Positions 8,416 through 32,000 of a stretch of 32,000 nucleotides of DNA are shown here, one piece after another. The notes under the pieces were generated by a model. That model saw nothing but the letters and a program-made list of their open reading frames with translations, ran no database searches and had not been told where the DNA came from. This DNA is from Geobacter metallireducens GS-15. GTDB taxonomy: Bacteria; Desulfobacterota; Desulfuromonadia; Geobacterales; Geobacteraceae. The first letter of the stretch is position 1, and every line of letters begins with the position of its first letter. A program made the translations under genes and the position numbers. The stretch lies in assembly GCF_000012925.1 (NCBI RefSeq), contig NC_007517.1, forward strand, positions 600,001 through 632,000. Direction: 5' to 3'.

Positions 8416-8422
8416 AGCCTTC

Positions 8423-8565: not shown

Positions 8566-8601
8566 CAGCAGTGGTTTGTGAGAGCGAGGAAGGTGAACAA
8601 C

Positions 8602-9904: not shown

Positions 9905-9940
9905 TCCCCGCTCCGCTCCCTGCCGGATCAAGGATGATTC

Positions 9941-10810: not shown

Positions 10811-10847
10811 GGTATTGCCGGCCACTCACCGTCACAGGAAACCATAG

Positions 10848-11753: not shown

Positions 11754-11760
11754 GAAATTT

Positions 11761-11902
11761 AATAACACGGAGAAACTGAGGGCACGGAGAAAAAACCAAG
11801 CCTGACAGATAAGTTGTGAATCGATGCTGCTATGCTCAGTCATGGATTTTCTCTGGGAGATAGGTTTTGATTCCTCCGTGTTCTCCGTCTCTCCGTGTTA
11901 TT
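11761..11902. repeat. palindromic intergenic repeat element, copy 2
   Basis: The left arm is AATAACACGGAGAAACTGAGGGCACGGAG (11761-11789). The right arm is CTCCGTGTTCTCCGTCTCTCCGTGTTATT (11874-11902). The right arm is the exact reverse complement of copy 1's left arm. The interiors share stretches (CTGACA...TTGTG..AAT, TTGATTyCTCCGTG) in the same orientation. Confidence 0.85.
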
Positions 11903-11903
11903 C

Positions 11904-16700: not shown

Positions 16701-19326
16701 CTGCCATGCCGGCACGACAACCACCAATACGAGCATAACCAACAAGGTCAACCACATAGACAAAGGGTATGACGTGACCGCCGGCAGCACCTTTGCCGAT
16801 GGCGACAACATCGGCGGCGCGGCAATCCCGGTGACGACCAGCTACACCTACAACACATCGGGGAGCAGCTGCTCCAACGTCTCCTGCCACCCGACCGGCC
16901 TCTCCGGCGCCAAGTCCACCGATGTCGTATCCTGGAACGACAAGCAGACCTGCGACGACTGCCACAAGGTCAACCTCAGCAACAACACCGGCTACCACCA
17001 TGCCATGCGCAACTACTCCGGTTCGAGCGCCTCCTATCCCAAGGCAATACCGGGCGACACTGCCGGCTCCAACGACGTGAACCGCCGCTGCACCATGTGC
17101 CACGTGGACCATGGCACCTTCAGCCCGAACCTCAACGCCTCGAACACCACCTACGGCAGTGCCGGCAACCTGCGGATGTCGATCTACTCCTCAGTCACCG
17201 CCACCAAGGGGTACAGCAACAGGGACTTCTTTAAGACCGGCTCCGGCGGCATCTGCGTCAGCTGCCACAACAGCGAGCTCTTCAAGGACACCGGCAACGT
17301 CCGGGTGAAGAACGAGGCCAATTCCACGAAAACAGCCGCCATTGTGCTCAACAACTACACCGGCTCGGCCCACGAGTATGCCATAAGTTCGGTGATGAAA
17401 CGCGACAGCAAGGTCTTCTACTCCGACTGCACCAAGTGCCATAACGGCCGCCGGAACGAGGTCGCCGTCTTCTCCGGCATGACCACCGCAGTGCACGACC
17501 GGGAGGTGAGAAGGATCTACGCCAGCCTCGGCACGAACCAGACAGACGGCATCGATGCGCTCTTCTGCTACCGCTGCCACAGCAACGCAACGGATGCCAT
17601 AGGCGGGACCAAAAAGCCGACAGCAAACAAGGACTATTACGCTACTGCCGCCATGACCGCAGCTTCCCAGGACATCTGGACGGTCTTCAGCGGAGTCGGT
17701 TCCACTACCTACACGACCACGGCATCATCCACCCTGTACCTGCGGGACACGGGGGCAATAAACGCCGTTCCACCGGCAACCGAGCCAACAGCCTACCAAT
17801 ACAGTTCCGGGACCTATACCACCAATACCTTCACCCAGGAGGATATGGCGCCCACATCCGGTACAATCAATGCGACGACGGTCATTTCCACAGGCTCTAC
17901 GGCAGCCCGCTATGATCGGGGCATCCAGTTCATATCGCCACAGATTGACAATACGGTAACGATTGCATCCGGTTCCACCTTTACCCTGACGATCAGGGAA
18001 TACCGTTCGTTCGGCACCACCACGGACTACACCCGGTTTACCGTTTACAAATGGGATGGGGCAACGGCGACGCCGTTGAACACGAACGCAGCGCCGAATA
18101 ACTTTGCCCAGGACACGGTTGCCATTCCTACCACGGCAACCAACAACGCACTTGCATTCACCACCAATTCAGCGGTGACGCTCAATCCGGGGGATGCCCT
18201 GATCTGTGAAGTTGAGTTCTACCATAGCTCGGGAACAACTGCCTTGAACGTGACCTATGCCTACGGTAACTATGGGACGGATGCCGCGGCTCTCGCGCTC
18301 CCCGCCGGCACCTACAACTGGCGAACCACTGCAACCACATCAAGATTTGGGCACGGTGTCGAAAATATCGCCTACGCCGGCAAGCACAAGCCATCGCCCA
18401 CGGACGAGACGTTCACCTACCTGAGCGCCAACAAGCATATTTCCTGCAACGACTGCCACGACCCCCACGAGGCGCGAGCCGGAAATCATACGGCCGGCGG
18501 TACGACGCTGCCCAAGGTGTTGAAGGGGGCGACCGGCGTAACCACACCCACCTGGCCGGCGCTATGGACGGCACCTGCGCAATCGGCCTATGGCACAGCC
18601 CCTGCCGCAGCGACGGCGGAATGGCAGATCTGCTTCAAGTGCCATTCCGGCGCCAACAGTAATGTGACGACCTGGGGCGGGGCGGGGTCGAAAGCATTCA
18701 CCGACCTCGGGCTGGAGTTCAACCCCAATAACGAGTCGTATCACCCGGTGATCCAGGCGCTGCCCGCAACCGGCAACAGACGTCTCGCTTCGACTGCACT
18801 GACGGGCGGCTGGACCCCCGGCAGCGTCATGACCTGTTCCGACTGCCACGCTGCCGATTCCGCTTCTTCCAAGGGGCCGCACGGTTCCACGGTGAAATGG
18901 ATGCTGAATCCGAACACGACCGGCACGAAGTACTACAACTGGCCCTATACTTCTGCTGCCAATAACGGAACAAACGGCACCACCGGTTTTGTGATGGGCA
19001 CCGGAACAACAACCGTGCCCACGGGTAACTTCTGTTTCAGTTGCCACGTGTGGGCGGGCGGCGGTGACGCTCATACTAATAAAGATACCAAGCATGCTTA
19101 TGCGTGCGTCCAGTGCCATATCCGGGTACCCCATGGCGGCAAGGTGCTGCGGCTGCTTACGGGACCGAATGCGCCCCTTCGTTACTGGCCGAACGGCCAG
19201 AGCACTGGTCTGAATATTGCCATCAATGGCGGTGTCAGGCCGACCTCCGGAACCATTACCGAGAACGGCTGCACCACCGCCGGGGTATGCGGCAACCAGC
19301 ATTCAGGGGCCGGTCAGAAATGGTGA
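13780..19326 (+). CDS. giant multihaem c-type cytochrome (~1848 aa)
   Basis: ORF 13714..19326. I prefer ATG 13780 because GGAGG sits 5 nt upstream and the start context is identical to the paralogue at 22606. Signal peptide is MKPILVATAAMISVMLLTVTGAGAA. By eye there are 26 CXXCH and 9 CX4CH motifs (CATVNCH, CKNLYCH, CATVYCH, CSSTVCH, CSNVYCH, CRNLYCH, CSNTYCH, CNQTYCH, CSNVSCH). A haem-free stretch lies at about nt 17640-18340. Confidence 0.9.
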   Translation: MKPILVATAAMISVMLLTVTGAGAAMQCYDCHGTSATTDYRPVDATYRNISTGGFKGNHQTHMGSGASSADCAVCHGGGATSYLNSHRSGNVDIAANINNSPATGTYSRGTSFAQSTTPTLGTCATVNCHFEAATPTWGADPSLTTCSTCHGAAPADGSHPATSGSGKKHGDYYGLTTSSCVKCHPDHTAEAKPFAHATSAGNRALVVAFNAAPNSGFGRYTGNTNYPNYLPSQAPPRNGTCKNLYCHSNGSRGFAPYTSNVTATWGGSLTCKGCHKADIASGSVITNGSHQGHVNGMTIGYTQIKCVKCHAATTNSSMTIVNTANHVDKQVTVAFNNTSSAANGSYNGQLAKPATPSTKAPGSAVGQCATVYCHSSGQGDGGTWPPTYQTPTWGTYATGQCGTCHGIQTKHDASGFGYGTPTPMTTGSHTRHLLFQLGTGNVSAERKCAACHSYILTGYAPNACSSTVCHNGMVQKHANYEINVGIPDYYGATATYNAASLTPGTGYSSCSNVYCHSNGLTTSPTYYTPTWGTVADGACGTCHGVTAAAPPASVPHVKHMGIANQYRFACAECHSGKVQVTANSTAAPTFTNLTSHVNKSRDVKFDPTNPFGTYSTASLSCRNLYCHSTGNTSVASGNLPGVYGGKVYARVTWSGSVTCTSCHGRSTANGMPDYTNAGTPGSDTANSHPKHVTSSTIQCVECHEKTTKNNTSIRPTTPSYHVNATSHDVFFNLSGLSPSGTYDSALKKCSNTYCHGAGASVAWGGTTYCNSCHSANDGTSGGGGINNWGAGVSAHTLHVEETATLPSKYANYSTGNLGSAAAYRFACASCHNPATTIHLSGYASGSYRAQVFFGYTAPGKKPAYTYTGTAGTADNGFGWSNGNTVCNQTYCHSNGVGGTGAAVSWATTANTAGVGRCQKCHGNATYTADYRGAAPLYASGSISYKGSSKGNAHQLHIDAGSGAAAASDPQCLHCHAGTTTTNTSITNKVNHIDKGYDVTAGSTFADGDNIGGAAIPVTTSYTYNTSGSSCSNVSCHPTGLSGAKSTDVVSWNDKQTCDDCHKVNLSNNTGYHHAMRNYSGSSASYPKAIPGDTAGSNDVNRRCTMCHVDHGTFSPNLNASNTTYGSAGNLRMSIYSSVTATKGYSNRDFFKTGSGGICVSCHNSELFKDTGNVRVKNEANSTKTAAIVLNNYTGSAHEYAISSVMKRDSKVFYSDCTKCHNGRRNEVAVFSGMTTAVHDREVRRIYASLGTNQTDGIDALFCYRCHSNATDAIGGTKKPTANKDYYATAAMTAASQDIWTVFSGVGSTTYTTTASSTLYLRDTGAINAVPPATEPTAYQYSSGTYTTNTFTQEDMAPTSGTINATTVISTGSTAARYDRGIQFISPQIDNTVTIASGSTFTLTIREYRSFGTTTDYTRFTVYKWDGATATPLNTNAAPNNFAQDTVAIPTTATNNALAFTTNSAVTLNPGDALICEVEFYHSSGTTALNVTYAYGNYGTDAAALALPAGTYNWRTTATTSRFGHGVENIAYAGKHKPSPTDETFTYLSANKHISCNDCHDPHEARAGNHTAGGTTLPKVLKGATGVTTPTWPALWTAPAQSAYGTAPAAATAEWQICFKCHSGANSNVTTWGGAGSKAFTDLGLEFNPNNESYHPVIQALPATGNRRLASTALTGGWTPGSVMTCSDCHAADSASSKGPHGSTVKWMLNPNTTGTKYYNWPYTSAANNGTNGTTGFVMGTGTTTVPTGNFCFSCHVWAGGGDAHTNKDTKHAYACVQCHIRVPHGGKVLRLLTGPNAPLRYWPNGQSTGLNIAINGGVRPTSGTITENGCTTAGVCGNQHSGAGQKW

Positions 19327-19356
19327 TAGTCTAGGTTTGCGACGTACCTCAAGGCG

Positions 19357-20679
19357 ATGAAACGGTTTCTGCTCTCACGTACTACCATCCTCGCTCTCTT
19401 TGCGCTGATCCTTGGCGCGATAGTGCTGTCCTATTTTGTTCCGCAACACATGGGAGTGCCTTCCCGCGCTCTCGATAAGTGGCGGGAGTCCCATGGGCCG
19501 CTGCTTGCGGCGGTCGATTTCCTGGGACTGCACCATATGTTCACGACCCCGTGGTTTGCCACCCTACTTGCGTTTTTTCTGGCTTCCCTTTCCCTGTCAA
19601 CGTATCAGCAGTACCGTTTGGCAAAAGAGCGGACTTTTCGGGTAGGGCTTCCTGGCGAAGGCTGGATCTCCCTGCCGGAAACAGCGATGGAATCGGCGGT
19701 GATTCTGCGGAAATTCGGATATGTGCGGATTGGCAACCAGGGAGAAGTGTCCCGGCATGTCAAACACCCCTGGGGGTATTGGGGCAACTTTCTGCTGCAC
19801 GTCGGCATTGTGCTCGTGGTGGCCTCGTCGCTGGTTATCCTGGTAACCCAGCATCGTGGGCTTCTCAATCTTGAGAGGGGCGAAACCGTTTATCCCGGTA
19901 CGCCATGGGCCGTTGAGGAAAATGGTCTGTTTGTCGGAAAGTTTGTGCTTCCGGCAGCCGTCCGGCTTGAGTCCCACGATCCGGTATTCTGGGATAACGG
20001 CGAGATCAAGTTGATTGAATCTACCGTTGCGTTCCTGTATCCGGACCGGCCCGTGGAACGCGCTACACTCGGAATCAATCAGCCTGCCTGGCTCGGCGGC
20101 GTCAAGATCTACCAGAGTCACAGGTTCGGCAGCGACTTCTATGCTGAGTTTGCCGATAGAGACGGCAAGAAAGTTGTGCTCATACTTCCCCTGCAAATCC
20201 CACCGCGGCTCGACGAGGCAGGCTATGGAGATTTTCAGTTCAACGTGATGCCCTTTCAGATCAAGGCAAAATATTATGCCGATGCTGCCCGGAAGGATAT
20301 GCTGAGCGGCAATCCGCTGCTCGTCCTCCGGTTGTACGATGGTGCCGCGCTCTTGGGAGAACTTCCGCTCCGGATTGGCGAAAGCGGCGTTCTCGGGAAC
20401 TACCATGTCCGGTTACTCAAAGCCGTGCCATGGAACGGGTTGATACTTGTCTCGATGAGCGGTATGCCAGGCATATTTTTCGGTTTTTTCATTATTGTAT
20501 GTGGCTGTTCCCTCAATTACTTCGTCGTGCCGCGGGAGGTGTGGGTGAGGGAGGGATCACAAACAGCGGTTTCCTGGCGGGCTGCACGCTTTGCCGAATT
20601 CTACCGTGACGAATATGACGAGCTTGTGGCGGCCTTGGGCGCTATGCACGAGCAAGCCGAAGCCGGGCCGGTTCAGTGA
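19357..20679 (+). CDS. resB: ResB/CcsB (Ccs1) cytochrome c biogenesis protein, System II
   Basis: 440 aa. It has the ResB-type N-terminal helix (TILALFALILGAIVLSYFVPQ), further TMs, a large periplasmic loop and a C-terminal TM. ccsA follows immediately. Confidence 0.85.
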   Translation: MKRFLLSRTTILALFALILGAIVLSYFVPQHMGVPSRALDKWRESHGPLLAAVDFLGLHHMFTTPWFATLLAFFLASLSLSTYQQYRLAKERTFRVGLPGEGWISLPETAMESAVILRKFGYVRIGNQGEVSRHVKHPWGYWGNFLLHVGIVLVVASSLVILVTQHRGLLNLERGETVYPGTPWAVEENGLFVGKFVLPAAVRLESHDPVFWDNGEIKLIESTVAFLYPDRPVERATLGINQPAWLGGVKIYQSHRFGSDFYAEFADRDGKKVVLILPLQIPPRLDEAGYGDFQFNVMPFQIKAKYYADAARKDMLSGNPLLVLRLYDGAALLGELPLRIGESGVLGNYHVRLLKAVPWNGLILVSMSGMPGIFFGFFIIVCGCSLNYFVVPREVWVREGSQTAVSWRAARFAEFYRDEYDELVAALGAMHEQAEAGPVQ

Positions 20680-20727
20680 ATTGGATTACGTCTTCACAAG
20701 AGGGCTTGAACGAAGGGAACGGTTGCC

Positions 20728-21564
20728 ATGTTCAATGGGAATGATCCGGTTATCATAGATGTTTCAGTCCACTGGATTGCGGTTATTGTGTACGTGCTGG
20801 CCACAATCAGCAATGTTTGGGGTGTGGTGTTCACGAAGAAAAAGGCTGTGCAATGGAGCTACTTCCTGGCATACCTGGGTCTCGCTATCCACGGGCTTGT
20901 CCTGCTTTACCGGTGGGTGATAACCGGCCATGGCCCGTATATGGCCCGGTACGAAATCCTTTCTTCAAATGCGTGGGTGCTCCTGGTGCTGTTTCTTGTG
21001 TTCGGCAAGGTTTATCCAAAGATCAAGCCGGCAAGCATCGTCGTTTTCCCGGCAACATTTCTTCTCATTGCCCTGGGCCTTTTCTTCAACCCCGAGATGA
21101 CCAGGATGCCCCCCAGCATGCGGAGCATCTGGCTTGTTCTGCATGTCTTATTTTACAAGATTTCAGTGGCAACCATTCTTGTCGCACTGGCATTTTCCCT
21201 GGTCCTGATCCTGAAAACCAGAACCTCGTACACATGGCTGGAACGGCTTCCATCCATCGAAGTCGTTGACGTCTACGCCTACCGTTTTGCCGGATTCAGC
21301 TTTGTGTTCTGGGCCATTGCCATGCTTGCCGGTTCCATATGGGCCTATCAGCTATGGGGGAGATTCTGGGGGTGGGATCCCGTGGAAACCTGGTCACTCA
21401 TCACGTGGGGGGCATTTGGCATGTATCTTCACCTGCGCAGGTTTTTCGGCTGGAAAGGGGAGCGGGCAGCCTACTTTTACCTGCTCTGCACGTTCGTATC
21501 GATTGTGGCGCTCTATTTTACGCCCTTGCTGGAGACATCCATCCATTCGGAGTATTTCAGGTGA
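20728..21564 (+). CDS. ccsA: CcsA/ResC cytochrome c-type biogenesis protein (haem handling, WWD domain)
   Basis: Polytopic membrane protein with the Trp-rich WWD signature WGRFWGWDPVETWSLITW and flanking conserved His residues. Confidence 0.9.
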   Translation: MFNGNDPVIIDVSVHWIAVIVYVLATISNVWGVVFTKKKAVQWSYFLAYLGLAIHGLVLLYRWVITGHGPYMARYEILSSNAWVLLVLFLVFGKVYPKIKPASIVVFPATFLLIALGLFFNPEMTRMPPSMRSIWLVLHVLFYKISVATILVALAFSLVLILKTRTSYTWLERLPSIEVVDVYAYRFAGFSFVFWAIAMLAGSIWAYQLWGRFWGWDPVETWSLITWGAFGMYLHLRRFFGWKGERAAYFYLLCTFVSIVALYFTPLLETSIHSEYFR

Positions 21565-22076
21565 TACGGAAAATTCTCGTATTCGCGCTATTGTGTCTCT
21601 TGTCTGCCGGTTGTGGCCGTGACAGTGCCGATGTGGCGCAGATCAAGAGGGGTATTGCCCGTTACAACCAGCTTCTTGTCGAAGGATACAAGGGGTTGAA
21701 CATGAACTACCTTCAGGAGGTCGCAACCCCTGAACTGGCTACCAAGGCCTATTATCACATGTCTGCCATTGGTGAGGGGAAACTTCGGATGGAATCAGCC
21801 CTGAAAGAGCTCACATTCAACAGGATTGAATTGCGCCGAAAGGATGAGGCCATTGTGGAAACCCGCGAAGTGTGGGACTTCAGATATGTGGAGATGAAAA
21901 CCGGCAAAACGTATTACGAGGAAAAGGATTTTGTCTACGAGATGGGGTATACCCTGAAGAAACACGCAGAAAAATGGACCATAACCCACATAACAACCAT
22001 TTCAGGGAAAACCGGTACAACGACCGTGCCCTGGCCGGAAATCAAGAGAAACAAAGACATGACTCCCCTGAAGTGA
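21561..22076 (+). CDS. small lipoprotein of unknown function (~171 aa)
   Basis: ORF 21339..22076 overlaps ccsA for 74 codons. The in-frame GTG 21561 (GTGA overlap with the ccsA stop) gives VIRKILVFALLCLLSAGC, a textbook lipoprotein signal. The remainder is a soluble alpha+beta-looking domain with no motif I recognise. Confidence 0.65.
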   Translation: MIRKILVFALLCLLSAGCGRDSADVAQIKRGIARYNQLLVEGYKGLNMNYLQEVATPELATKAYYHMSAIGEGKLRMESALKELTFNRIELRRKDEAIVETREVWDFRYVEMKTGKTYYEEKDFVYEMGYTLKKHAEKWTITHITTISGKTGTTTVPWPEIKRNKDMTPLK

Positions 22077-22205
22077 GTGAGCCGCTCCCTGAGCTGAACA
22101 CCTAGTTCGGTAGTTTCATGCCGTATCCCCTTCGTTCTCCCCAGCTTCCCCAGCAGTTTCAGCTGTTAATTCCCTTCATGCTCTGACGGTACCCTGGACA
22201 AGAGG

Positions 22206-22222
22206 GCCGGGGTCTCCCCGGC
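22206..22222 (+). terminator. GC-rich hairpin in the long spacer (possible terminator)
   Basis: GCCGGGG-TCT-CCCCGGC, a 7-bp stem about 130 nt after stop 22076. There is no clear U-tract. Confidence 0.3.
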
Positions 22223-22476
22223 GCATGTCCCTGTTTCATGGATTCAAACAGTAATCGGCAGTCGGGCTCGGTCAAATGACGTAGTTTTTGTTCCCTTGTC
22301 CGTTATTTTGACATGATTGAGCGGGTTCTGTGTCGAAAGGCCGACGCGCTGCCGGTTCCCTTACGGCAGGCTTGGGCGGACAAGTTTCCCGCGAATGTGC
22401 GATCCGGGGGAGGAAGAGCGTCGATATGATTCTACGGCGATTCGGTGTGGTTAATGTGTTCTGTTAAAGTTTATTA

Positions 22477-22492
22477 GGGAGCAGTTTTTGCA
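22477..22492 (+). promoter_or_regulatory. candidate sigma-54 -24/-12 promoter for the 1127-aa cytochrome
   Basis: GGGAGC-AGTTT-TTGCA. GG (22478-22479) and GC (22490-22491) are 10 nt apart. It lies about 115 nt upstream of ATG 22606. Confidence 0.4.
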
Positions 22493-22605
22493 TTCATTAA
22501 AAACCGGTCGATGCATCATCTCGTGCCGCTTGCTGAGAGGAATCGCCATCTCGTGGCAGGAAAGACGAAGCAACGACATGCATCTGGAGTCGGTGGAGGC
22601 ATGAT

Positions 22606-25600
22606 ATGAAGTCGATGATAGCGGCAACAGCCGCTGTGCTTTCTGTGGTGTTTCTGGCGGTAACGGGTGCCAGTGCCTCCATTCAGTGCTATGACTGCCA
22701 TGGCACAACTGCAACTGCGGACATCCGCCCCAACGATACCGCATACCGCAATATCACTACCGGTGCCTTCAAGGGGAGCCACCAGACCCACATGGCACCG
22801 GGCGCGACGGTCACAAGCTGCACCCCCTGCCACGGGGGGAGGGTCACGAGCTACACCACGAGCCACCGCGAGGGCTTCATCAACCTCACGAGCAACGTCA
22901 ACGGTTCACCGGCCACAGGGGTTTACAGCCGCGGCACCCTCTTTGCGCAGAGCTCGGATCCAACCCTCGGGACCTGCTCCAATGTCAACTGCCACTTCGA
23001 GACGGTTACCCCCACTTGGGCCTTAACCCCGCTCTCAGCCCCGGCCGACTGCAACAAATGCCACGGCGCAGCCCCTGCCGACGGGAGCCATCCCGCCACA
23101 TCGGGCAGTGGCAAGAAGCATGGCGACTACTACGGCCTCACCACCAGTTCCTGCGCCAGGTGCCACCCCGACCATACCCTTGAGGCGCGGCCCTTCGACC
23201 ATGCCACCAGCGCCGGCAACCGCGGACTCATCGTGCAATTCACGACGGCGCCCAACAACGGTTTCGGCCGTTATACCGGCAACGTGAGGTACCCCAACTA
23301 TCTGCCGAGCCAGAACCCGTCCCGCAACGGCACCTGCAGAAACCTTTACTGCCACAGCCCCGGCAACAAGGCGAGCAGCTTCGATCTTCCCAACAACAGC
23401 GCCACCTGGGGCGGTTCTCTCAGCTGCAAGGGGTGCCACAAAGCGGATATCGCTTCAGGCGATGCCATTACGAGCGGCAGCCACCAGGGCCACGTCAACG
23501 GCCAAGGCATCGGCTATACCCAGATCAAGTGCGTCAAGTGCCATGGGGCCACCGTCAACTCCAGCATGACGATCGTCAATACCGGCAACCATGTGAACGG
23601 ACAGGTAACGATCGCCTTCGACAACACCTCTTCTGCCGCCGGCGGCACCTATAACGGCCAGCCTGCCAAGCCGGCAACCCCGTCCACCAAGGCCCCCGGC
23701 TCCACCTACGGCAGCTGCCAGAACGTCTACTGCCACTCCACCGGCCAGACCGATGGCGGCACCTGGCCTCCCCTCTACACCACTCCCACCTGGGGGAGCG
23801 GCGCCACCGGCAAATGCGGCACCTGCCACGGCACCACCGGCAGCGACACCCACGGCGGCTTTCCCGGCACCATGATCCAGCGGAGGATCTCCTCCGGCAG
23901 TCACAAGAAGCACCTGAGCCGGGTCTACGGCCTGACCGATCTGGACATGAGGTGCGCCATCTGCCACGCCTACGACAAGACCGCCTTCACCAGCAACCTC
24001 ACCACCTGCGGCCCGGTCTGCCATGTCGCCAGCATGCCGCAGAAGCACGCCAACTACGAGATCAACGTCAACATCGCCAACTACTTCGGCGCCACCGCCA
24101 CCTACAACGGCTCCACCACGCCGGGGGCGGGCTACAGCAGCTGCTCCAGCGTCTACTGCCACTCCGACGGCAAGGCAACCCCCACGACCTATGCCACCCC
24201 CACCTGGGGCAACGCCGCCAGCGGCGCCTGCGGCACCTGCCACGGCGTCACCGCCGCTGCGCCGCCGGCCTCAACCCCCCACACGAAACACGTGGGGAGC
24301 GCCTATCCCTACCGCTTTGCCTGCGCCGAATGCCACAGCGGCAAAGTTCAGGTGACCGCCAACGCCACCATCGCCCCGGCCTTCGCCAACTCAACCAGCC
24401 ACGTGAACAAGACGCGGGACGTGAAGTTCGACCCCACCAACCCCTTCGGGACCTACTCCTCGGCCGCCACCACGTGCCGCAACCTCTACTGCCATTCCAC
24501 CGGCAACACCAGTGTTGCTGCGGCCAACCTCCCCGGAGTCTACGGCGGGAGCGTCTACGCGCGGCAGGGGTGGACAGGAAGCGTCACCTGCACCTCGTGC
24601 CACGGCCGCTCCACCACCAACGGCATGCCCGACTACACCAACGCCGGCGCGCCGGGATCGGCCACGGCCAACAGCCATCCGAAGCATGTCACGAGCAGCA
24701 CCATCGCCTGTAACGAGTGCCACGAGAAGACCACCAAGAACAACACGAGCATCCGCCCGACTACGCCGAGCTACCACGTTGCGGGCACTCCCAGCGTCTT
24801 CTTCAACCTCTCCGGCGCCAACAAGAACGGGACGTACAACGGCACCGTGGGGCAGAAGACCTGCACCAACATCTACTGTCACAGCAACGGGTCCGGGACC
24901 TACCAGTCTCCCGCCCCGCAGTGGGGTAACAGTTACAACTGCGGCTCCTGCCATCCCATCGCCAGTCTCAGTGCCACCCACGCCAAGCATATCGATGTAA
25001 CGGTGACGCCGACCTTCTACACCTTTACGGCCAACCGCTCATCGGGCGACGATACGACCGGCAAGTACTACTTCGGCTGCTCCAACTGCCATCCCCTGGA
25101 CGCCGTCAATCACGCCAACGGCAGCATCACCCTGGATTTGCGTCCTGCCGTCGGCGGTGTGAGCACGCTCCGTTCGAAAAACAGTGCCGCCATAACCGCT
25201 TTCGGCACCGCCGGAACAGCCAACAGCGGCACGATCGGCACCAGCAAATCCTCGGTCAAGTGCCTGAATATCTACTGCCACAGTAACGGCTATGCAGCGA
25301 ACCCTGTCTACGCCACAACACCGGACTGGTACGGCGGGAGCTTTACCGACCGGTGCGCCAGCTGCCACGGCAACTCCCCCAACAGCACCATCAACGGCTC
25401 GCCGGCCCACTACAACACCAATTTTGTCGGCACGGGGGTCAGCAACGGCCATGTGGTGGGGATCCATTCCGACGACATCTTTACCGGAACAAGCGGTCTC
25501 GCCACCGCCGGAACCGGCGCCACCAACAGCCACGGCAACAGCGCATACTCGACCACCATCAACTGCAACGTCTGCCACAACCTGACGGTCACCAGCGCCC

Positions 25601-25989
25601 GGAACGATTCGAACGTAGTCTGCAAGACCTGCCACTACAGCGGCAATACCGTCGGCGCCCTTGTCGGCAACAGCGCCGCCATCGCCAACAAGGCTCTCCA
25701 TGTGAGCGGGCAGGTGAATGTCTCCTTCGCGGCAGTCGCCGTAAAATCGAAGGCCGAGGTGAGGACCGCCAGCGCGGTCGTGCAGCCCTACAAGACCACC
25801 TGGAACCGGGTCGGAACCTACAAGAGCTCCGGCTCGTACGATCAGGCCGCCAATGCGCTCAACACGGCCTCCATGTGGAACGGGGCCACCAAGACCTGTT
25901 CGAACATCGCCTGTCACAACGGGCAGCCTGTCACCTGGACTTCCACCGGTGGCGCCACCGGTTGCCAGAGTTGCCACCCGGCTTTGTAG
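22606..25989 (+). CDS. multihaem c-type cytochrome (1127 aa), paralogue of the N-terminal two-fifths of the 13780 gene
   Basis: GGAGGCATGATATGAAG start context is identical to that at 13780. Signal peptide is MKSMIAATAAVLSVVFLAVTGASAS. By eye there are 18 CXXCH, 8 CX4CH and one CX3CH (CGPVCH). The first ~760 aa align residue for residue with the 13780 protein, and most positions are identical. Confidence 0.9.
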   Translation: MKSMIAATAAVLSVVFLAVTGASASIQCYDCHGTTATADIRPNDTAYRNITTGAFKGSHQTHMAPGATVTSCTPCHGGRVTSYTTSHREGFINLTSNVNGSPATGVYSRGTLFAQSSDPTLGTCSNVNCHFETVTPTWALTPLSAPADCNKCHGAAPADGSHPATSGSGKKHGDYYGLTTSSCARCHPDHTLEARPFDHATSAGNRGLIVQFTTAPNNGFGRYTGNVRYPNYLPSQNPSRNGTCRNLYCHSPGNKASSFDLPNNSATWGGSLSCKGCHKADIASGDAITSGSHQGHVNGQGIGYTQIKCVKCHGATVNSSMTIVNTGNHVNGQVTIAFDNTSSAAGGTYNGQPAKPATPSTKAPGSTYGSCQNVYCHSTGQTDGGTWPPLYTTPTWGSGATGKCGTCHGTTGSDTHGGFPGTMIQRRISSGSHKKHLSRVYGLTDLDMRCAICHAYDKTAFTSNLTTCGPVCHVASMPQKHANYEINVNIANYFGATATYNGSTTPGAGYSSCSSVYCHSDGKATPTTYATPTWGNAASGACGTCHGVTAAAPPASTPHTKHVGSAYPYRFACAECHSGKVQVTANATIAPAFANSTSHVNKTRDVKFDPTNPFGTYSSAATTCRNLYCHSTGNTSVAAANLPGVYGGSVYARQGWTGSVTCTSCHGRSTTNGMPDYTNAGAPGSATANSHPKHVTSSTIACNECHEKTTKNNTSIRPTTPSYHVAGTPSVFFNLSGANKNGTYNGTVGQKTCTNIYCHSNGSGTYQSPAPQWGNSYNCGSCHPIASLSATHAKHIDVTVTPTFYTFTANRSSGDDTTGKYYFGCSNCHPLDAVNHANGSITLDLRPAVGGVSTLRSKNSAAITAFGTAGTANSGTIGTSKSSVKCLNIYCHSNGYAANPVYATTPDWYGGSFTDRCASCHGNSPNSTINGSPAHYNTNFVGTGVSNGHVVGIHSDDIFTGTSGLATAGTGATNSHGNSAYSTTINCNVCHNLTVTSARNDSNVVCKTCHYSGNTVGALVGNSAAIANKALHVSGQVNVSFAAVAVKSKAEVRTASAVVQPYKTTWNRVGTYKSSGSYDQAANALNTASMWNGATKTCSNIACHNGQPVTWTSTGGATGCQSCHPAL

Positions 25990-26017
25990 TTGACGCATAA
26001 AACGAATGAATGATAAT
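25990..26017 (+). promoter_or_regulatory. candidate sigma-70-type promoter in the AT-rich spacer
   Basis: TTGACG (25990-25995), a 16-nt spacer, then GATAAT (26012-26017). It lies about 40 nt upstream of ATG 26056, which has an AAGGAG RBS at 26043-26048. Confidence 0.35.
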
Positions 26018-26055
26018 TATTTTCGACTGTTGAAGCAGATACAAGGAGTCGACAG

Positions 26056-29000
26056 ATGCATGCACTCAAGCCAAGGGGCAGTACCCGCAATGGGTGGTGG
26101 GGAAAAGTAATTCTCGTTGTCGCACTCCTGTTGGGCGCGGGTTTTGTTCTGTTCCATCATGGGGGGAGGCTGTCTCTTGCCGCTACATCGGGTCCGAATG
26201 CTGTTGCGACCGGAACGACATCCGGCTGGACGGGTGCGACGAACATTTACACACAGAACAGCACCTATGCGACCTACGCCGGATCCTCCAGCACGGCATA
26301 CCTGCTTGGTACCAATTACGGTTTTGCCATCCCGACCGGATCGACGATCAATGGCATTACTGTCGATATCTGGGGGTTCAACAGCAACACGACTACCGCT
26401 AACCGCATGATCAAGATTTCGCTCACCAAGACCGGCAACTCCACGGTGGCGGGTACCACGAAGACAGGCGTCACGCTTCCGACCGCCAACGGCCAGGTGA
26501 CCCAGGGGGGCGCCGCCGACCTCTGGGGAACCACTTGGACGGCCGCTGATGTCAACAGTGCGAACTTTGGCGTCATCATCGCAGACAATGATACGACTAT
26601 CGGCGGCACGCTCAGTATTGACTACGTGCGGGTCACCGTCACCTACACCCCGCCGACGACGCTCGGCAACGGTGCCACCGGCACGAACGCCACCGTCTGC
26701 CCCGGTGATGCCTTGCAGAAACTCGACGGTTTCTCTTTCACGACCGCCACCGGGACCGACAGTATTACCGCCCTCACCGTCACGACCACCAACGGCACTG
26801 CCATCGCCGGCATGTCGATCTGGGACGAGGCGGGGACTACCCAGTATTTCACCACCGTGAACAACCCGGGAACCAACACCTGGAGTTTCAGCGGCGGTAC
26901 GCCGATCCCCGTTGACACGACCGTCAAGAACTACAAGGTTCTGGTAACGTACAAGGATCACCCCACCGCTCCGGCGGGTTCAACCGCCACCACGGCCGCC
27001 GTCACCGCCTTCACCCCTTCGACCGGGGTGGCGGCCGGCACGGATACGGCGGACACGACACTCACCCTCGACAATGTCCCCGGCACTGCAGCCGTGTGGG
27101 GGACAAACACCGGCGGCGTCGCATCGGTGACCCTCAACTGGACCCTCGGCGCTGCAGGAGAGAACGTGGTAATAGTCCGGTATGGGGCGAACACCGACAC
27201 CACCATGCCCGTTGATGGCACTTCCTATACCGTGGGCTCTTCGTTCGGGACCGGCGGGACGGTAGCCTACGCCGGATCGGGTGTTACCGCCACCGACACT
27301 GTCCAGGCCGGGACGTATTACTACCGCATCTTCGAATACGATGGCTGCTTCAACTATGCGGCCACCGCCCCATGGTCCACCGCCGTCACGGCCACACCGC
27401 AGAACAAGACGGTCGCCGGCTCCGCCTCCGCCATGTGGGCATCCCCCACCAGCATTTCGGTCATGGTCGGCTATACGAATGACGACAACAGCAACAACAA
27501 CATCACCATCGAGTACAGCAGCGTTTCCGCGTCCACCGGTTTCGTCACGGCGGTGACCACGCCGACCCACCCGGCCGTCCCCTACCAGTACACCATAGCC
27601 GGCCTAACCACCGGCAGCACCTATTGGGTCAGGGTCACCTGGAACGACGTGGATGGTGTGCTCGGCACGAGCCCCACGGTGCTTCCCTCCATCGTCCTCA
27701 CCCAGTACAGTCCGCTCCTGCACAACAGTGCCATCCTCGGATCGAACAAATGGCCGAGCGGCTGGGGGGTGACCGGCGGCAAGTACGGCGCCTTTTCCTG
27801 CACCACCTGCCACACCATGAAGTCGGCCAACATCAAGCGGGTCCGAACCTCCATAACCGCTCCCTTCGGCAACTGGAGTTCCTCCGGTACCCCGAGCGTC
27901 TCCGTCAGCTTCACGAACCTCACGAGCATGGGGCATGACGACGACAATCACACCACTTCCAACCGGGTATGCGAGGTCTGCCACAACAGGAACAAGTACC
28001 ACAACTACAACACCACCAAGAACACCGGCGGAAAGAGCCACAACAACGGCATTGACTGCGTCGGCTGCCATTCTCATAATATTGCCTTCAAAGGGGAGGA
28101 ATCCAAGGGGGGCAAAGCCTGCACCAACTGCCACAACAGCGGCAAGTTCGCCTCTGCCCTCAAGGGATCGAACGGGTACCACCACTATCTGCAGAACACC
28201 GACAGCATCACGTACGGCACCATCGCGCAGCCCGCCCTGACGGGAGGGGCCACCGACACCAACCGCAGCTGTCTCATGTGCCACGTGGACCACGACATCT
28301 TCCGCCCCGACATCAACCTGAACGCCGGCAGCGGTCGGGCCAAGAACCTCCGCGCCGACATATCGACGACCCCGACCGCCGCCGATACGACCAGTTACGC
28401 CAACACCGACTTCATTCCCGATGCCACGAAGAACGGCGGTATCTGCATCTCCTGCCACCGGACTGCGCAGACGAACCTCGGCTACACCCAGCCGGACGGC
28501 TCCCAGAGAAAGCCGGCGATCCCCTATCCTGATACCGTTCAGAATCAGATCTTCGTCTACATGAGCTCGGCCCACAACTACACGGTAAGCTCCACCTTCT
28601 CCGGAACCGGCACCAACTCATTTGTCGCCAACTGCTCGAAGTGCCACAACGACACTCTGAACCCGAAATCCGGCTACAATGCCCAGGGGACCTCACGGAT
28701 CAAGTTCGGCAACCATACCAGCTCTATCCCCCAGATGCTGACCACCTTCGGCGCCCCGGTCACCTCGTCCCAGAAGGCCGATTACTGCTTCAAGTGCCAC
28801 GGCAACGTGGCCCCCTTCAGCACGACGACCCCGAACATCAACGTGTATCTGTCAACGCCGCGGTACGATTGGTACAGCACTTCGCTCATGACCGCCCGGA
28901 CCAAGAACATCGCCGCCGACTTCAACGACGCGGCCCTGACCCACAAACACCAGGTCCAGCTTGCCGCCTATGTTGACAAACACCATGCCGGCGAGACCAG

Positions 29001-29910
29001 GGCCGAGCTCTCCGCCAACAAGCACGTCACCTGCGACGACTGCCACAACCACCATGGTTCCAAGAAGGGGCTTCATATCCAGGCCGGTCCCCGCAATCTC
29101 TCGCCCGCCCTGAAAGGGGCCATGGGGGTCACCCCCCCCACCTGGAACGCGTGGTCCACGGCCCGGGCCGCCGGCACCACGGTAGTCTGGCCGGATGCCC
29201 TGGTCCCGGCCTCGGAGGAGTGGCAGATCTGCTTCAAGTGCCACAGCAGCTACAACACCAACCAGGCCGGGTGGGTCGGCACCAATTACGGCGGCGCCGA
29301 CCTGGCGATCCAGCTGAACCCCACCTACAAGTCGGGCCATGCCATCATCGGCAACTCCCGGGTGCCGGCGGATTCGCCGTCCAACTTCGCCGCCGGGACC
29401 CCCTGGAACAAGAACAGCATCATGACCTGCACCGATTGCCACGTGAACAGCAACACCGGTGCGAACGACCCGAAGGGAGGGCATGCCTCCGCGAACCCCT
29501 ACATGCTCCGGGGGAACTACCAGCCGACCCTGGCCTCGACGGTCGACATGGCCAACCATGGCCCGGCCGAGATGTGCGGCCTCTGCCACAATCCGTTGTC
29601 GTACGGCATTTCTTCCGCGGACCCCACTGGCACCCAGGGTTCCAGCGGTTACAGTTCCGGCACCAATAACCTGCACCTGGAGCACGCTTTCCGGCAGGGG
29701 ATCAGCGGGTACAAGTGCTCCATGTGCCATGCGGCCAATATCCACGGTTCTCCCCGACAGTCGATGTTCGTCCTTAAAACGGACCCGGCGCCGTACATGG
29801 TCGGCTCGGACCATGTGGGCAGCTTTACCCGCAAGGCGAACAAGACCTACAACGGCTCCGAATGCAAGGGTGGGATCGGAGCCTGCAGTGCTGGCATTCA
29901 CACCCCCTGA
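26056..29910 (+). CDS. membrane-anchored beta-sandwich/FN3-like stalk protein with C-terminal 13-haem cytochrome c domain (1284 aa)
   Basis: N-terminal TM/signal anchor (WWGKVILVVALLLGAGFVLF). About 560 aa are Thr/Gly/Ser-rich and Cys-poor, including FN3-like segments (VTLNWTLG...YYYRIFEYD; ITIEYSS...YQYTIAGLTTGSTYWVRVTW). Then 13 CXXCH motifs by eye. The C-terminal haem region aligns with the C-terminal part of the 13780 protein. Confidence 0.9.
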   Translation: MHALKPRGSTRNGWWGKVILVVALLLGAGFVLFHHGGRLSLAATSGPNAVATGTTSGWTGATNIYTQNSTYATYAGSSSTAYLLGTNYGFAIPTGSTINGITVDIWGFNSNTTTANRMIKISLTKTGNSTVAGTTKTGVTLPTANGQVTQGGAADLWGTTWTAADVNSANFGVIIADNDTTIGGTLSIDYVRVTVTYTPPTTLGNGATGTNATVCPGDALQKLDGFSFTTATGTDSITALTVTTTNGTAIAGMSIWDEAGTTQYFTTVNNPGTNTWSFSGGTPIPVDTTVKNYKVLVTYKDHPTAPAGSTATTAAVTAFTPSTGVAAGTDTADTTLTLDNVPGTAAVWGTNTGGVASVTLNWTLGAAGENVVIVRYGANTDTTMPVDGTSYTVGSSFGTGGTVAYAGSGVTATDTVQAGTYYYRIFEYDGCFNYAATAPWSTAVTATPQNKTVAGSASAMWASPTSISVMVGYTNDDNSNNNITIEYSSVSASTGFVTAVTTPTHPAVPYQYTIAGLTTGSTYWVRVTWNDVDGVLGTSPTVLPSIVLTQYSPLLHNSAILGSNKWPSGWGVTGGKYGAFSCTTCHTMKSANIKRVRTSITAPFGNWSSSGTPSVSVSFTNLTSMGHDDDNHTTSNRVCEVCHNRNKYHNYNTTKNTGGKSHNNGIDCVGCHSHNIAFKGEESKGGKACTNCHNSGKFASALKGSNGYHHYLQNTDSITYGTIAQPALTGGATDTNRSCLMCHVDHDIFRPDINLNAGSGRAKNLRADISTTPTAADTTSYANTDFIPDATKNGGICISCHRTAQTNLGYTQPDGSQRKPAIPYPDTVQNQIFVYMSSAHNYTVSSTFSGTGTNSFVANCSKCHNDTLNPKSGYNAQGTSRIKFGNHTSSIPQMLTTFGAPVTSSQKADYCFKCHGNVAPFSTTTPNINVYLSTPRYDWYSTSLMTARTKNIAADFNDAALTHKHQVQLAAYVDKHHAGETRAELSANKHVTCDDCHNHHGSKKGLHIQAGPRNLSPALKGAMGVTPPTWNAWSTARAAGTTVVWPDALVPASEEWQICFKCHSSYNTNQAGWVGTNYGGADLAIQLNPTYKSGHAIIGNSRVPADSPSNFAAGTPWNKNSIMTCTDCHVNSNTGANDPKGGHASANPYMLRGNYQPTLASTVDMANHGPAEMCGLCHNPLSYGISSADPTGTQGSSGYSSGTNNLHLEHAFRQGISGYKCSMCHAANIHGSPRQSMFVLKTDPAPYMVGSDHVGSFTRKANKTYNGSECKGGIGACSAGIHTP

Positions 29911-29944
29911 TGCATCCGATGCCATATCGAAGAGGTAGGACTTG

Positions 29945-30733
29945 ATGAAGAAGACACTCTGCGCTATCGCCATGTTGTCATACTGTCTTGTCATGATGCC
30001 TGCGGCGGCATCAGCGGCCTGTACCGCCATCGACAAGGTTCCCTTTACGGTTCGGAAGCAGGGGGACTACTGTCTCACAAGAGACGTTTCACTGCACGAC
30101 GGGGCGGTCGGGATTCTCGTGGAAGCCGATCAGACCGTCATCGACCTGGGGGGGCACCGGCTTCAGGGGACGGGCGGCGAGGGGAGCTACGGCATCCGCT
30201 CTGAAAAGGGAGTAACACTCCGCAATGGGACCATCAGCGGCTTCAATATCGGCATCGCCGGCGGGTCCGGTTCGCTCATTGAGAACCTGTGGATCGAGAA
30301 GAGCACCCGGACGGGAATCTTGGTGAACGGCGCCGGGAGCGTTGTCCGCAACAACATCGTAACCGATGCACGCGCCGCTTTCGAGGCCTATGGCATCGTG
30401 GCGATGGGGGGTAAGAACCGTATCCTCGACAACAGGATCACGGAGATGAAGGGGGCTTCCGGCGGGCGGGGATTCGGGATTCGGGTCTATGCCGCCGGCG
30501 GGAACGTCATCGAAGGGAACCAGATCGGCAACGCTTCCTTCATCCCCAACACCTTCGGAATCGTCGTCTCCGGGGCGGAATCCCGTAACAACGCCCTGAA
30601 TGCCAACAGCATAACCAACGTGGAAAACGGCATCGTCTATGACCGCGGCGGAAGCGGCACCAACCGCGGCAACCGCACCACCGGTGTCCGCAACCGGTAC
30701 GTCGGCGGCACCGACGGGGGCGGGAACGATTAG
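29945..30733 (+). CDS. secreted right-handed beta-helix repeat protein (~262 aa)
   Basis: ATG 29945; the ORF track starts one codon earlier at TTG 29942. Signal peptide is MKKTLCAIAMLSYCLVMMPAAASA. Beta-helix coil repeats are present (LRNGTISGFNIGI, IENLWIEKSTRTGI, VRNNIVTDA, ILDNRITEM, IEGNQIGNA, LNANSITNVENGI). Confidence 0.8.
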   Translation: MKKTLCAIAMLSYCLVMMPAAASAACTAIDKVPFTVRKQGDYCLTRDVSLHDGAVGILVEADQTVIDLGGHRLQGTGGEGSYGIRSEKGVTLRNGTISGFNIGIAGGSGSLIENLWIEKSTRTGILVNGAGSVVRNNIVTDARAAFEAYGIVAMGGKNRILDNRITEMKGASGGRGFGIRVYAAGGNVIEGNQIGNASFIPNTFGIVVSGAESRNNALNANSITNVENGIVYDRGGSGTNRGNRTTGVRNRYVGGTDGGGND

Positions 30734-30814: not shown

Positions 30815-32000
30815 ATGACGGGTAACGATCTCATGCAACGCCTGGCTTCGCGGCGTGTTTCCCTGACGCTTATCCTGATGCTCCTCTGCATATGCGTCAT
30901 CGGCGCATTGGTCCCCCAGAAGTCGACCCTGGAGCCGGAGAGCTATGCCGCATGGGTCGCAGCCGGAGGGGTCCACGATCTCTGGCTGAAGCTCGGATTT
31001 ACCCGCATTTTTTCAACCTGGTATTTTCTCGCGGTCATGATCCTCTTCTTCGCCAGCACCCTCGCTGCGACGATAATACGCGCCCGGGGCCTGCTGAGAC
31101 GGGAGAAGCCGGAGCCGAGCGCCGCAGCCATGGTGGGGGAGCCCTTTTCGACAACGGTTTCCGGCGTACCGCTGGAAAAGTTGAAATTGCGGGTTTCGGG
31201 CTTTTCCTGGCACGAAGGGCTCTGTGCTGACGGCAGATACCTTGCCGGCACACGCTTCGGGATCGCACGGTGGTCCGTCGTGTCGCTCCACCTGTCGTTG
31301 CTGTTGCTCATCCTCGGCGTTCTCGCGAGCCACGCCACCTATTTTCGCGGCTATATGAAGCTGGGAGTGGGGCAGAGTGAACAACTCGACGAATCGGGCT
31401 TTTTCCAGCAGGACAGGGGGATGTTTGCCCCGGCTCTCCCGCAAGGGCTCAAGATCACGCTTCTTTCCTTCGATAACCGGTATCGGGAAGCGGGTTATCT
31501 CCCCGACATTGCGGCGGATTTTCTGCTGGAAGGCGCAGCCGGAGGCCCCCTCAGGACGAGGCTCCTCCGCTCCGGGATGGTATCCTATGGTGGGCTCGAC
31601 CTCTATCTCTCCGTCCGTCGTGGCTTCGGGGTCATCCTCCACACGGTGCGCCGGGACGGTGGGCGGGCATCGGGCTACGTTAATTTCAACTTTCCCGAGG
31701 GGGGGAAAACTCCCCGGGTCCAAGCCGAAATACCCGGTTCCAATGCGCAGGTTGACGTTGAGTTCCTCTCCCGCAACCGCAGGTACGACGACTTGGCCGG
31801 GATTGCAGCACCGGCAATCCGGATGAGATTCATGCGAAACGGAGGCGTCGTTGCCGAGCGCCTCCTTCGTCCCGGTGAGGGAACGGTAGTGGAAGGGATC
31901 AGCTATACGTTCGGGAAGATAGACTACTGGTGCGACATCGCCGCCACGCGTGATCCCGGCATTTATCTCATTTACGCCGGCTTTGCCGCCGCCGCCCTGA
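30815..32000 (+). CDS. ResB-like cytochrome c biogenesis protein (3'-truncated by window edge)
   Basis: It is not in the ORF track because no stop is reached. I translated the frame by hand from ATG 30815 (alternative ATG 30833), and it stays open to position 32000 (about 395 codons). The N-terminus LMQRLASRRVSLTLILMLLCICVIGALVPQK is ResB-type. Further TMs are present (FSTWYFLAVMILFFAST; WSVVSLHLSLLLLILGVLA). Confidence 0.75.
   Translation, partial: MTGNDLMQRLASRRVSLTLILMLLCICVIGALVPQKSTLEPESYAAWVAAGGVHDLWLKLGFTRIFSTWYFLAVMILFFASTLAATIIRARGLLRREKPEPSAAAMVGEPFSTTVSGVPLEKLKLRVSGFSWHEGLCADGRYLAGTRFGIARWSVVSLHLSLLLLILGVLASHATYFRGYMKLGVGQSEQLDESGFFQQDRGMFAPALPQGLKITLLSFDNRYREAGYLPDIAADFLLEGAAGGPLRTRLLRSGMVSYGGLDLYLSVRRGFGVILHTVRRDGGRASGYVNFNFPEGGKTPRVQAEIPGSNAQVDVEFLSRNRRYDDLAGIAAPAIRMRFMRNGGVVAERLLRPGEGTVVEGISYTFGKIDYWCDIAATRDPGIYLIYAGFAAAAL

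Follow-up and report, generated by a model that had tools for sequence, protein, structure and literature searches.

Iron reduction and direct interspecies electron transfer (DIET) are both studied in the model organism Geobacter metallireducens, whose largest cytochromes have, to our knowledge, no solved structures, only knock-out phenotypes. A stretch of 32,000 nucleotides (nt) from strain GS-15 (positions 600,001 to 632,000 of the forward strand of NC_007517.1; hereafter the window, to which all coordinates refer unless the genome is named) contains two cytochrome loci that pose a question of descent. At the first, a single gene, Gmet_0571 (13780..19326, + strand), encodes a fused cytochrome of 1848 amino acids (aa); at the second, two adjacent genes, Gmet_0575 (22606..25989, +; 1127 aa) and Gmet_0576 (26056..29910, +; 1284 aa), encode proteins that resemble its N-terminal part and its C-terminal third, respectively. 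Did one locus arise from the other by fusion or fission, as an original prediction made from the letters of the DNA had proposed, or does the resemblance have another source? Taking all the evidence together, we consider it probable (roughly 0.72 for the explanation as a whole) that the two loci resemble each other through shuffling of modules by recombination, with no recent fusion or split.

The setting is the cytochrome island of this strain, whose published haem counts and gene order (PMC10989804, PMC2700814) fit the window and were used to assign locus tags to its open reading frames (ORFs); the best match in the protein database comes from G. grbiciae, at 97%. ORF calling recovered all three genes where the original prediction had placed them. 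Gmet_0571, an 'A-type' cytochrome with a Sec signal peptide, has 35 haem sites in its translation (26 CXXCH and 9 CX4CH); Gmet_0575, a 'B-type' cytochrome likewise with a Sec signal peptide, has 27 (18 CXXCH, 8 CX4CH and 1 CX3CH); and Gmet_0576 is signal-anchored, with 13 CXXCH, zero CX4CH and all haem sites downstream of aa 580 (none before aa 582). The published descriptions of the three proteins are '34/35 hemes', '27 hemes' and, in the supplement, 'Multiheme cytochrome, 12 hemes, 1 TM' (PMC10989804).

Similarity between the two loci

Gmet_0571 and Gmet_0575 align from residue 1 onwards (aa 1-925 against aa 1-924, 63% identity, E = 0 in BLASTP). When identity is followed in 50-aa windows, it stays at ~72% to aa 745 and then drops abruptly to 30-40%, in good agreement with the alignment over the first ~760 aa that had been claimed from the sequence. 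The next part of Gmet_0571 (aa 746-1047) is ~30-40% identical to Gmet_0575 as far as aa 925 of the latter and 10-28% identical beyond. The identical string quoted in support of the claim, CHGAAPADGSHPATSGSGKKHGDYYGLTTSSC, is found in both proteins in the BLASTP alignment. At the DNA level, the identity of 'nearly 90%' that had been estimated by eye holds locally, the best 100-nt window reaching 90%, but not overall, the mean being 73%; over 2168 nt, the two genes are 75% identical.

The C-terminal third of Gmet_0571 aligns with the haem domain of Gmet_0576 in two blocks (aa 1056-1299 against aa 687-952, 33% identity, E = 4e-28, and aa 1525-1712 against aa 965-1154, 41% identity, E = 2e-30), with all six of the motif pairs previously singled out in register. 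In a chance control, the non-motif residues of Gmet_0571 were shuffled with each CXXCH held in place and the local alignment was rescored; against this background, the observed score corresponds to z = 13.6 for block 1 and z = 16.3 for block 2. With the haem motifs left out, the two blocks are still 34% and 36% identical. The similarity thus exceeds generic CXXCH spacing, the artefact against which the claim had been hedged. In a comparison with the whole genome, the haem domain of Gmet_0576 matches nothing except Gmet_0571. At the domain level, the proposed relationship stands: an N-module of CX4CH repeats and a haem C-module of ~600 aa form a single chain at one locus and are divided between two adjacent genes at the next. 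Gmet_0571 has the composite form of a Rosetta-stone protein, with separate regions homologous to Gmet_0575 and to Gmet_0576.

Modules of the three proteins

All three proteins are mosaics of a small set of haem modules, namely an N-terminal CX4CH/CXXCH array, a ten-haem C-module of ~600 aa in two halves, a terminal module referred to as Btail, a module referred to as Cmid, and haem-free stalks or inserts. All features given below lie on the + strand. Gmet_0571 consists of an N-module of CX4CH/CXXCH repeat units common to Gmet_0575 (13780..16014, aa 1-745); further CX4CH/CXXCH repeats that are kept in A-type proteins but not in Gmet_0575 (16015..16920, aa 746-1047); block 1 of the C-module (16921..17685, aa 1048-1302, 5 CXXCH); a Thr/Ser-rich, haem-free insert (17686..18339, aa 1303-1520); and block 2 of the C-module (18340..19323, aa 1521-1848, 5 CXXCH), the lineage of which differs from that of block 1. 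Gmet_0575 consists of an N-module of the A-type lineage (22606..24840, aa 1-745) and a C-terminal part of the B lineage (24841..25989, aa 746-1127). The latter ends in Btail (25378-25986, aa 925-1127), a 200-aa module made up of a c7-like stretch and one final CX4CH unit.

In Gmet_0576, a signal anchor and haem-free N-terminal stalk (26056..27735, aa 1-560), the latter 30% similar to the N-terminal stalk of an OmcN homologue encoded outside the window, is followed by Cmid (27736..28125, aa 561-690), the first haem module, which is c7-like, carries three to four CXXCH and matches PF14522 at 25.8 bits (cut-off 24.8). Sequence comparison found Cmid missing from Gmet_0571. The C-module of Gmet_0576, delimited by hidden Markov model (HMM) envelopes, occupies 28087..29904 (block 1, aa 678-955; block 2, aa 961-1283) and has ten CXXCH. 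Two details went unmentioned in the original prediction: the 219-aa haem-free insert that splits the C-module halves of Gmet_0571, and the three extra haem sites (aa 561-690) and 560 haem-free aa that lie ahead of the shared part in Gmet_0576.

The insert of Gmet_0571 has no CXXCH, and neither the insert nor the stalk of Gmet_0576 has a Pfam match; the insert is 73% identical to that of protein P0044. The junction between the C-module blocks is a recurrent insertion site, with 3-6, ~220, ~320, 413, 464 or 611-653 extra residues across the family, lengths that suggest one to three inserted haem-free domains. In the repeat arrays, TIGR01904 scores 204.9 bits in Gmet_0571 and 257.9 bits in Gmet_0575 (cut-off 27), with eight matched units in each, and PF09698 scores 85.5 and 133.5 bits (cut-off 21.7); Gmet_0576 matches neither model.

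Gmet_0576 is also present in the protein collection as a version of 1094 aa, starting 190 codons later, which would be without the signal anchor. We favour the long form of 1284 aa, which includes 26056-26625, because the orthologues are 1287-1290 aa long and because a ribosome-binding site, AAGGAG, stands 7 nt ahead of the ATG at 26056.

Conserved gene order and possible docking

Gmet_0575 and Gmet_0576 belong to a cassette of two genes that is conserved and distinct from the Gmet_0571 lineage. The first gene encodes a repeat cytochrome ending in Btail; the product of the second is signal-anchored and combines a stalk, Cmid and the C-module; ResB and CcsA genes come next. The spacer between the two genes, which are on the same strand, is 66 nt long, and no terminator-like site was seen in it in a motif scan. 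Modules were mapped at 32 loci from 87 Geobacteraceae species genomes. In the fused architecture (~25 mapped loci), CX4CH repeats and a C-module are usually followed by ResB and CcsA. In the split architecture (L072, L079, L080 and L083), a CX4CH cytochrome ending in Btail is followed by a protein with 13 CXXCH and without CX4CH, in which Cmid comes first; split pairs are present in several Geobacteraceae genera. Close orthologues of Gmet_0576 (L015/L016, 86% identity) have kept the arrangement, with a CX4CH cytochrome gene ahead and beta-helix, ResB and CcsA genes behind. At L017, where the orthologue is 56% identical, the ORF in front is truncated and shows 47% identity to the tail of Gmet_0575.

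As an unbiased test, Btail was searched alone in the 87 genomes, of which 39 contain it, and 40 loci were sampled. Btail lies at the very C-terminus in all 40 sampled genes. A giant protein bearing Cmid is encoded directly next (<=180 nt) at 23 of these loci and by the second gene at 3 more, and in 38 of the 39 ORFs that carry Cmid it is the first haem module. Gmet_0575 and Gmet_0576 follow the same rule, with Btail ending the upstream protein and Cmid heading the haem modules encoded by the next gene, which lies on the same strand. In two genomes (L101, G055:C19:3000-12100, and L105/L106, G058:C35:37600-53600), the order extends to three-gene chains, Btail / Cmid...Btail / Cmid. Among the mapped loci, Btail occurs in none of the fused A-type proteins and Cmid in only a few. 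In the three-gene chains, gene 2 encodes ~2280 aa, and the layout resembles a daisy chain.

Conserved gene order lends independent support to a functional coupling of Gmet_0575 and Gmet_0576, and the pattern fits tail-to-head docking of separate cytochromes into a longer conduit, without proving docking. Btail of Gmet_0575 would then dock on Cmid of Gmet_0576, in our view the likeliest mechanism, though no more than a guess. It is conceivable, and we put it forward tentatively, that such docking would give a non-covalent chain of ~40 haems doing the same job as the covalent 35-haem chain of Gmet_0571. The general form of this proposal, in which Btail and Cmid would be a matched docking pair by which Geobacteraceae string exported giant cytochromes into multi-protein wires, the fused A-type proteins being a covalent alternative that needs neither, seems to us less likely than not.

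A serious alternative, to which we give somewhat less than even odds, is that Gmet_0575 and Gmet_0576 are adjacent merely through common regulation and a dedicated haem-attachment pair, and act independently, without forming a complex. This would agree with the C-module genes of distant phyla, which adjoin ResB/CcsA and have no CX4CH cytochrome beside them, and with the proposal of Aklujkar et al. that each ResB/ResC pair serves nearby cytochromes (PMC2700814). In its favour, and against a coupled cassette, are also the 14 of the 40 Btail loci that have no Cmid neighbour and the two close orthologues of Gmet_0576 that stand alone with no cytochrome upstream (L018, and L125 from G. argillaceus). 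A promoter-like match found by the motif scan inside the 66-nt spacer is a further point against a coupled cassette. Because of these unaccompanied Btail genes and solitary orthologues, the pairing of Btail with Cmid has to be described as frequent, not obligatory. On the other hand, independent action sits poorly with the specificity of the position rule (Btail last, Cmid first in the next gene), with its repetition in the three-gene chains, and with the lack of Btail and Cmid in most fused A-type proteins.

Probable recombination between module lineages

Recombination would move modules between such genes and so give the likeness of the two loci. The modular shuffling that had been proposed alongside fusion or fission is strongly upheld by the block trees, the N-module tree, the approximately unbiased (AU) test and the sliding identities. 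The last of these place lineage breakpoints at aa 745-750 of Gmet_0575 and at aa 1290-1300 of Gmet_0571.

Gmet_0575 would be the product of a graft, an A-type N-module (aa 1-745) having been joined to a tail of B type. The N-module tree places this protein as the sister of L065_5682 (76% identity, support 99), a fused protein of 1733 aa from another Geobacter species, within a clade of six fused and two B-type N-modules (support 98), and the 'B-type' label takes at least five changes. Between aa 51 and aa 745, identity to L065_5682 is 52-90% per 50-aa window (~79% on average). From aa 751 to the end, Gmet_0575 is 54-88% identical per window, mostly 70-88%, to L080_10829, which is B-type and comes from a third species, compared with ~30% to A-type proteins.

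Gmet_0571 would be a member of an old lineage that carries repeat array and C-module in one chain, with a change of lineage at ~aa 1300. Its N-module is 78-79% identical to that of L067_5701, its sister in the N-module tree, and identity to this protein is 80-96% in most windows to ~aa 1290 and 52-70% in a few, mainly within the first 150 aa. Over aa 746-1047, values per 50-aa window are 58-84% to L067_5701 (80-84% to aa 900) and 52-84% to L065_5682. Block 1 of the C-module groups with L067_5701 and P0045 (84% identity, clade support 100). Past ~aa 1300, which is the position of the insert, Gmet_0571 departs from the L067_5701 lineage: block 2 groups with P0032, L058 and L078 (65-66%), and identity to L067_5701 is only 18-42% there. 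Constraining block 2 of Gmet_0571 to the group of L067_5701 and P0045 lowers the log-likelihood by 356 units and is rejected by the AU test (p = 0.0015).

The sharp fall in identity at aa 745-750 would also be expected had Gmet_0571 and Gmet_0575 recently been made alike over their first 745 codons by gene conversion within the genome. The identity of these two genes reaches ~20-60 nt upstream of the start codon, and Gmet_0575 is nearer to Gmet_0571 (62% in the N-module table, 72% in windows) than to its positional orthologue L015_up1494 (55%), in contrast to Gmet_0576, which retains high identity to its own orthologue. We nonetheless consider conversion improbable, given that the DNA is only 73-75% identical and that the sisters of both N-modules lie elsewhere, that of Gmet_0575 being L065_5682 and that of Gmet_0571 being L067_5701 (79%, from a third species). 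It was rejected on the N-module tree, in which the two genes of the window are not each other's closest relatives.

The CX4CH array itself is joined to Btail, to the C-module or to an OmcN-type C-terminal module in the same genome and its relatives. A Rosetta-stone inference supposes domains that are not promiscuous, and it is weakened here because the CX4CH module combines with at least three kinds of C-terminal module. A second fused/split case occurs in the same genome: a protein of 1528 aa (C1:2805938-2810524, minus strand) unites an N-module (40% identity) with the module at the C-terminus of Gmet_0581, the OmcN homologue (41%), a module that otherwise sits in the gene adjoining the B-type Gmet_0580. 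The 1528-aa protein is probably Gmet_2470 ('34 hemes') and has no ResB/CcsA neighbour. At another locus (L073, G015:C48:40600-60500), ORF 5509-12066 encodes 2185 aa that join, in a single chain, a haem-free stalk and Cmid to three CX4CH units and a C-module of A type; it follows a Btail cytochrome and is a hybrid of the fused and split architectures.

The C-module family and the age of the two loci

Ten invariant or near-invariant CXXCH and an invariant set of distal His characterise the C-module, and because these Cys and His columns recur in alignments of 19 rows and of 35 rows across phyla, it can be regarded as a true domain family, for which no curated family name was found. Gmet_0571 and Gmet_0576 match the HMMs of both blocks (~255 and ~300 aa) over their full length. 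In a scan of one genome per species, the C-module is encoded in at least 539 stretches, from Geobacteraceae, Nitrospirota, Zixibacteria, Actinomycetota, Acidobacteriota, Campylobacterota, Bacillota, Chloroflexota and others. Outside the relatives of Geobacter, nearly all C-module proteins are without CX4CH and have, like Gmet_0576, 12-14 CXXCH behind a long haem-free region. At least ten phyla have unfused forms, and fused forms are limited to Geobacteraceae and to metagenome-assembled genomes (MAGs) labelled Deltaproteobacteria or Anaeromyxobacteraceae; the unfused state is widespread and probably ancestral. On several metagenome or MAG contigs (L019, L020 and L022), C-module genes adjoin ResB/CcsA pairs; genes for NHL-repeat proteins and for a B12-binding radical SAM protein are often beside them as well.

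Only three changes of the fused label are required on a 61-row C-module tree (shuffled mean 20.6); the clade that holds Gmet_0571 there is fused throughout and that of Gmet_0576 is unfused, each with support 100. When 16 rows from other phyla were added, giving 77 rows, the label takes five changes; Gmet_0571 falls in an 18-row all-fused clade and Gmet_0576 in an 8-row unfused clade within a 28-row unfused group, both clades with a value of 100 in the Shimodaira-Hasegawa-like approximate likelihood ratio test (SH-aLRT). The CcsA proteins encoded behind Gmet_0571 and behind Gmet_0576 are 36% identical, and the two ResB proteins give no BLAST match to each other; because of this distance, the two cassettes are judged to be old. 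Judged from these comparisons, the C-modules of Gmet_0571 and Gmet_0576 are old paralogues and neither locus is made from the other. In Rosetta-stone terms, the parts are not each other's closest relatives.

Although the module order is collinear, the similarities are strong and the loci are 3 kb apart on one strand, direct fusion or fission within the lineage, whether by the joining of two genes ancestral to Gmet_0575 and Gmet_0576 into Gmet_0571 or by the splitting of a Gmet_0571-like gene into the pair, is highly improbable and the original claim of descent is not supported, given the unequal divergence of the N-module (72%) and C-module (33-41%), the placement of the two C-modules in separate supported clades, each with sequences from other genera or phyla, the position of a fused protein from another species as the nearest relative of the Gmet_0575 N-module, the distance between the neighbouring CcsA genes, and the absence from Gmet_0571 of both the 380-aa B-type tail of Gmet_0575 and the 680-aa stalk and Cmid of Gmet_0576.

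The explanation by module shuffling, together with the surface role considered below, has further points to its debit. The trees come from 'quick' IQ-TREE searches, are unrooted and carry SH-aLRT support only, and the concatenated C-module trees are confounded by recombination between blocks, their clade composition differing between 61 and 77 rows. The outer-surface placement of these proteins is published as a prediction only (PMC10989804). The AlphaFold2 model of the Gmet_0576 C-module, built from the 35-row alignment, is of modest quality (predicted local distance difference test score, pLDDT, 60; predicted template modelling score, pTM, 0.66).

Export, haem attachment and function

All three proteins would be exported via Sec, would have their haems attached by System II, probably with assistance from the neighbouring ResB/CcsA paralogues, and would act at the cell surface as long conduits for electrons. 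Surface localisation and wire function are what we infer for Gmet_0571, Gmet_0575 and Gmet_0576 alike. Deletion of Gmet_0571 slows DIET with Methanosarcina and leaves growth on Fe(III) oxide unaffected, and Gmet_0575 and Gmet_0576 are expressed (PMC10989804). Sequence searches of the PDB with Gmet_0571 and Gmet_0576 gave only chance matches at E <= 1, and a Foldseek search of the PDB with the modest-quality C-module model gave nothing at E <= 0.001. Pfam scans of the window ORFs turned up no porin-like family; Pcc porins are poorly covered by these scans and no dedicated search for them was made.

Neighbouring genes

Gmet_0571 is followed by a haem-attachment pair, Gmet_0572-0573 (19357..21564, +), with a ResB-like ORF at 19357-20679 (PF05140, 1.5e-24) and a CcsA/ResC-like ORF at 20728-21564 (PF01578, 6.4e-33). 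The two are named as a ResB/ResC pair in PMC2700814, and the adjacent PF05140 and PF01578 genes at 19357-21564 have the makeup of a System II synthase pair. The ORF at 21339-22076 overlaps ccsA, has no family match and is probably no gene. At 19000-23000, which includes resB, ccsA and the 530-nt spacer ahead of Gmet_0575, G+C content is 52-56%, compared with 60-65% in the cytochrome genes.

After the cytochrome pair comes Gmet_0577 (29942..30733, +), named in the supplement of PMC10989804, which encodes a small beta-helix (NosD-like) lipoprotein; no Pfam match was found for the copy in the window (a 263-aa ORF), and its orthologue in L015/L016 matches PF05048 and PF13229. Next is the ResB-like Gmet_0578 (30815..32000, +; PF05140, 6.3e-22), which continues for 149 nt beyond the window, to genome position 632149. 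The CcsA-like Gmet_0579 follows outside the window, and further on are Gmet_0580 (873 aa) and Gmet_0581, an OmcN homologue of 2912 aa.

Upstream of Gmet_0571 are two radical SAM/SPASM genes (8906-10810). The window begins inside Gmet_0558 (3-1106; genome C1:597124-601106), which encodes an OmcO homologue of 1054 aa with 26-27 haem sites and which, with Gmet_0557, is reported to be necessary for Fe(III) oxide reduction. It is followed by a gene for an 871-aa NosD-like beta-helix protein and a short ResB-like gene, a layout that echoes the downstream cassette.

Comparison with known systems

The filaments of OmcS, OmcE and OmcZ, as well as MtrC/OmcA, are like the present proteins in being presumed long-range electron conduits at the cell surface, and some C-module homologues give weak matches to PF22113 (domain II/IV), as found in MtrC/MtrF. 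They differ in that there is no sequence match, no fold match for the modest C-module model and no sign of polymerisation. The CxxxxCH/CxxCH cytochromes (TIGR01904, PF09698), as which Gmet_0571, Gmet_0575 and Gmet_0580 are annotated, share the repeated CX4CH and CXXCH and the Sec signal peptide. The TIGR01904 model, however, spans the repeat array alone and leaves out the C-module, Btail and the partner gene Gmet_0576.

A closer counterpart is the OmcN locus, Gmet_0580 and Gmet_0581, whose counterparts in G. sulfurreducens we take to be GSU2899 and GSU2898. The cassette logic is the same: the CX4CH cytochrome Gmet_0580 ends in Btail (59% identity to Gmet_0575 aa 766-1126), and the product of the next gene, Gmet_0581, is giant and signal-anchored and has a haem-free stalk and Cmid, like that of Gmet_0576. 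In contrast to Gmet_0571 and Gmet_0576, Gmet_0581 ends not in their C-module but in CX4CH repeats and another C-terminal module. The System II pairs Gmet_0572-0573 and Gmet_0578-0579 follow the two loci as published by Aklujkar et al. in 2009 (PMC2700814), where such pairs are considered together with nearby cytochromes; beyond that account, ResB/CcsA accompany the C-module gene even in distant phyla, and because they are kept there in the lack of CX4CH cytochromes, their association is not tied to CX4CH sites.

Multihaem cytochromes are described as evolving by 'grafting and pruning' of modules in two papers (Soares et al. 2022, PMC9250108; PMC11492766), and the principle is the same here, haem modules and non-haem domains being added, lost and recombined. 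The second of these, a survey of Desulfuromonadia, includes an AlphaFold wire model of a G. metallireducens cytochrome with 27 motifs and 130.7 kDa, whose size and number of motifs make it, we infer, the probable Gmet_0575 orthologue. The passages covered of both papers contain no description of these loci, of the breakpoints or of the Btail-then-Cmid rule, and in the searchable texts of the wider literature the relation of Gmet_0571 to Gmet_0575/0576, the breakpoints and the rule go unmentioned. The genes, haem counts, ResB/ResC pairs and the idea that a pair serves its neighbours had already been published (PMC2700814, PMC10989804).

Exchangeable modules with mapped joints offer natural construct boundaries for expression and structural work, in particular for the C-module, a widespread ten-haem domain without a solved relative in a sequence search of the PDB, and the mosaic genes warn against orthology calls from whole-gene similarity. 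The one new lead here is the Btail-then-Cmid rule, which points to a concrete pair of small domains and, should these dock, would explain conduits longer than one polypeptide. Compared with known systems, the finding is a well documented example of module shuffling among known Geobacter cytochromes and no new kind of system.

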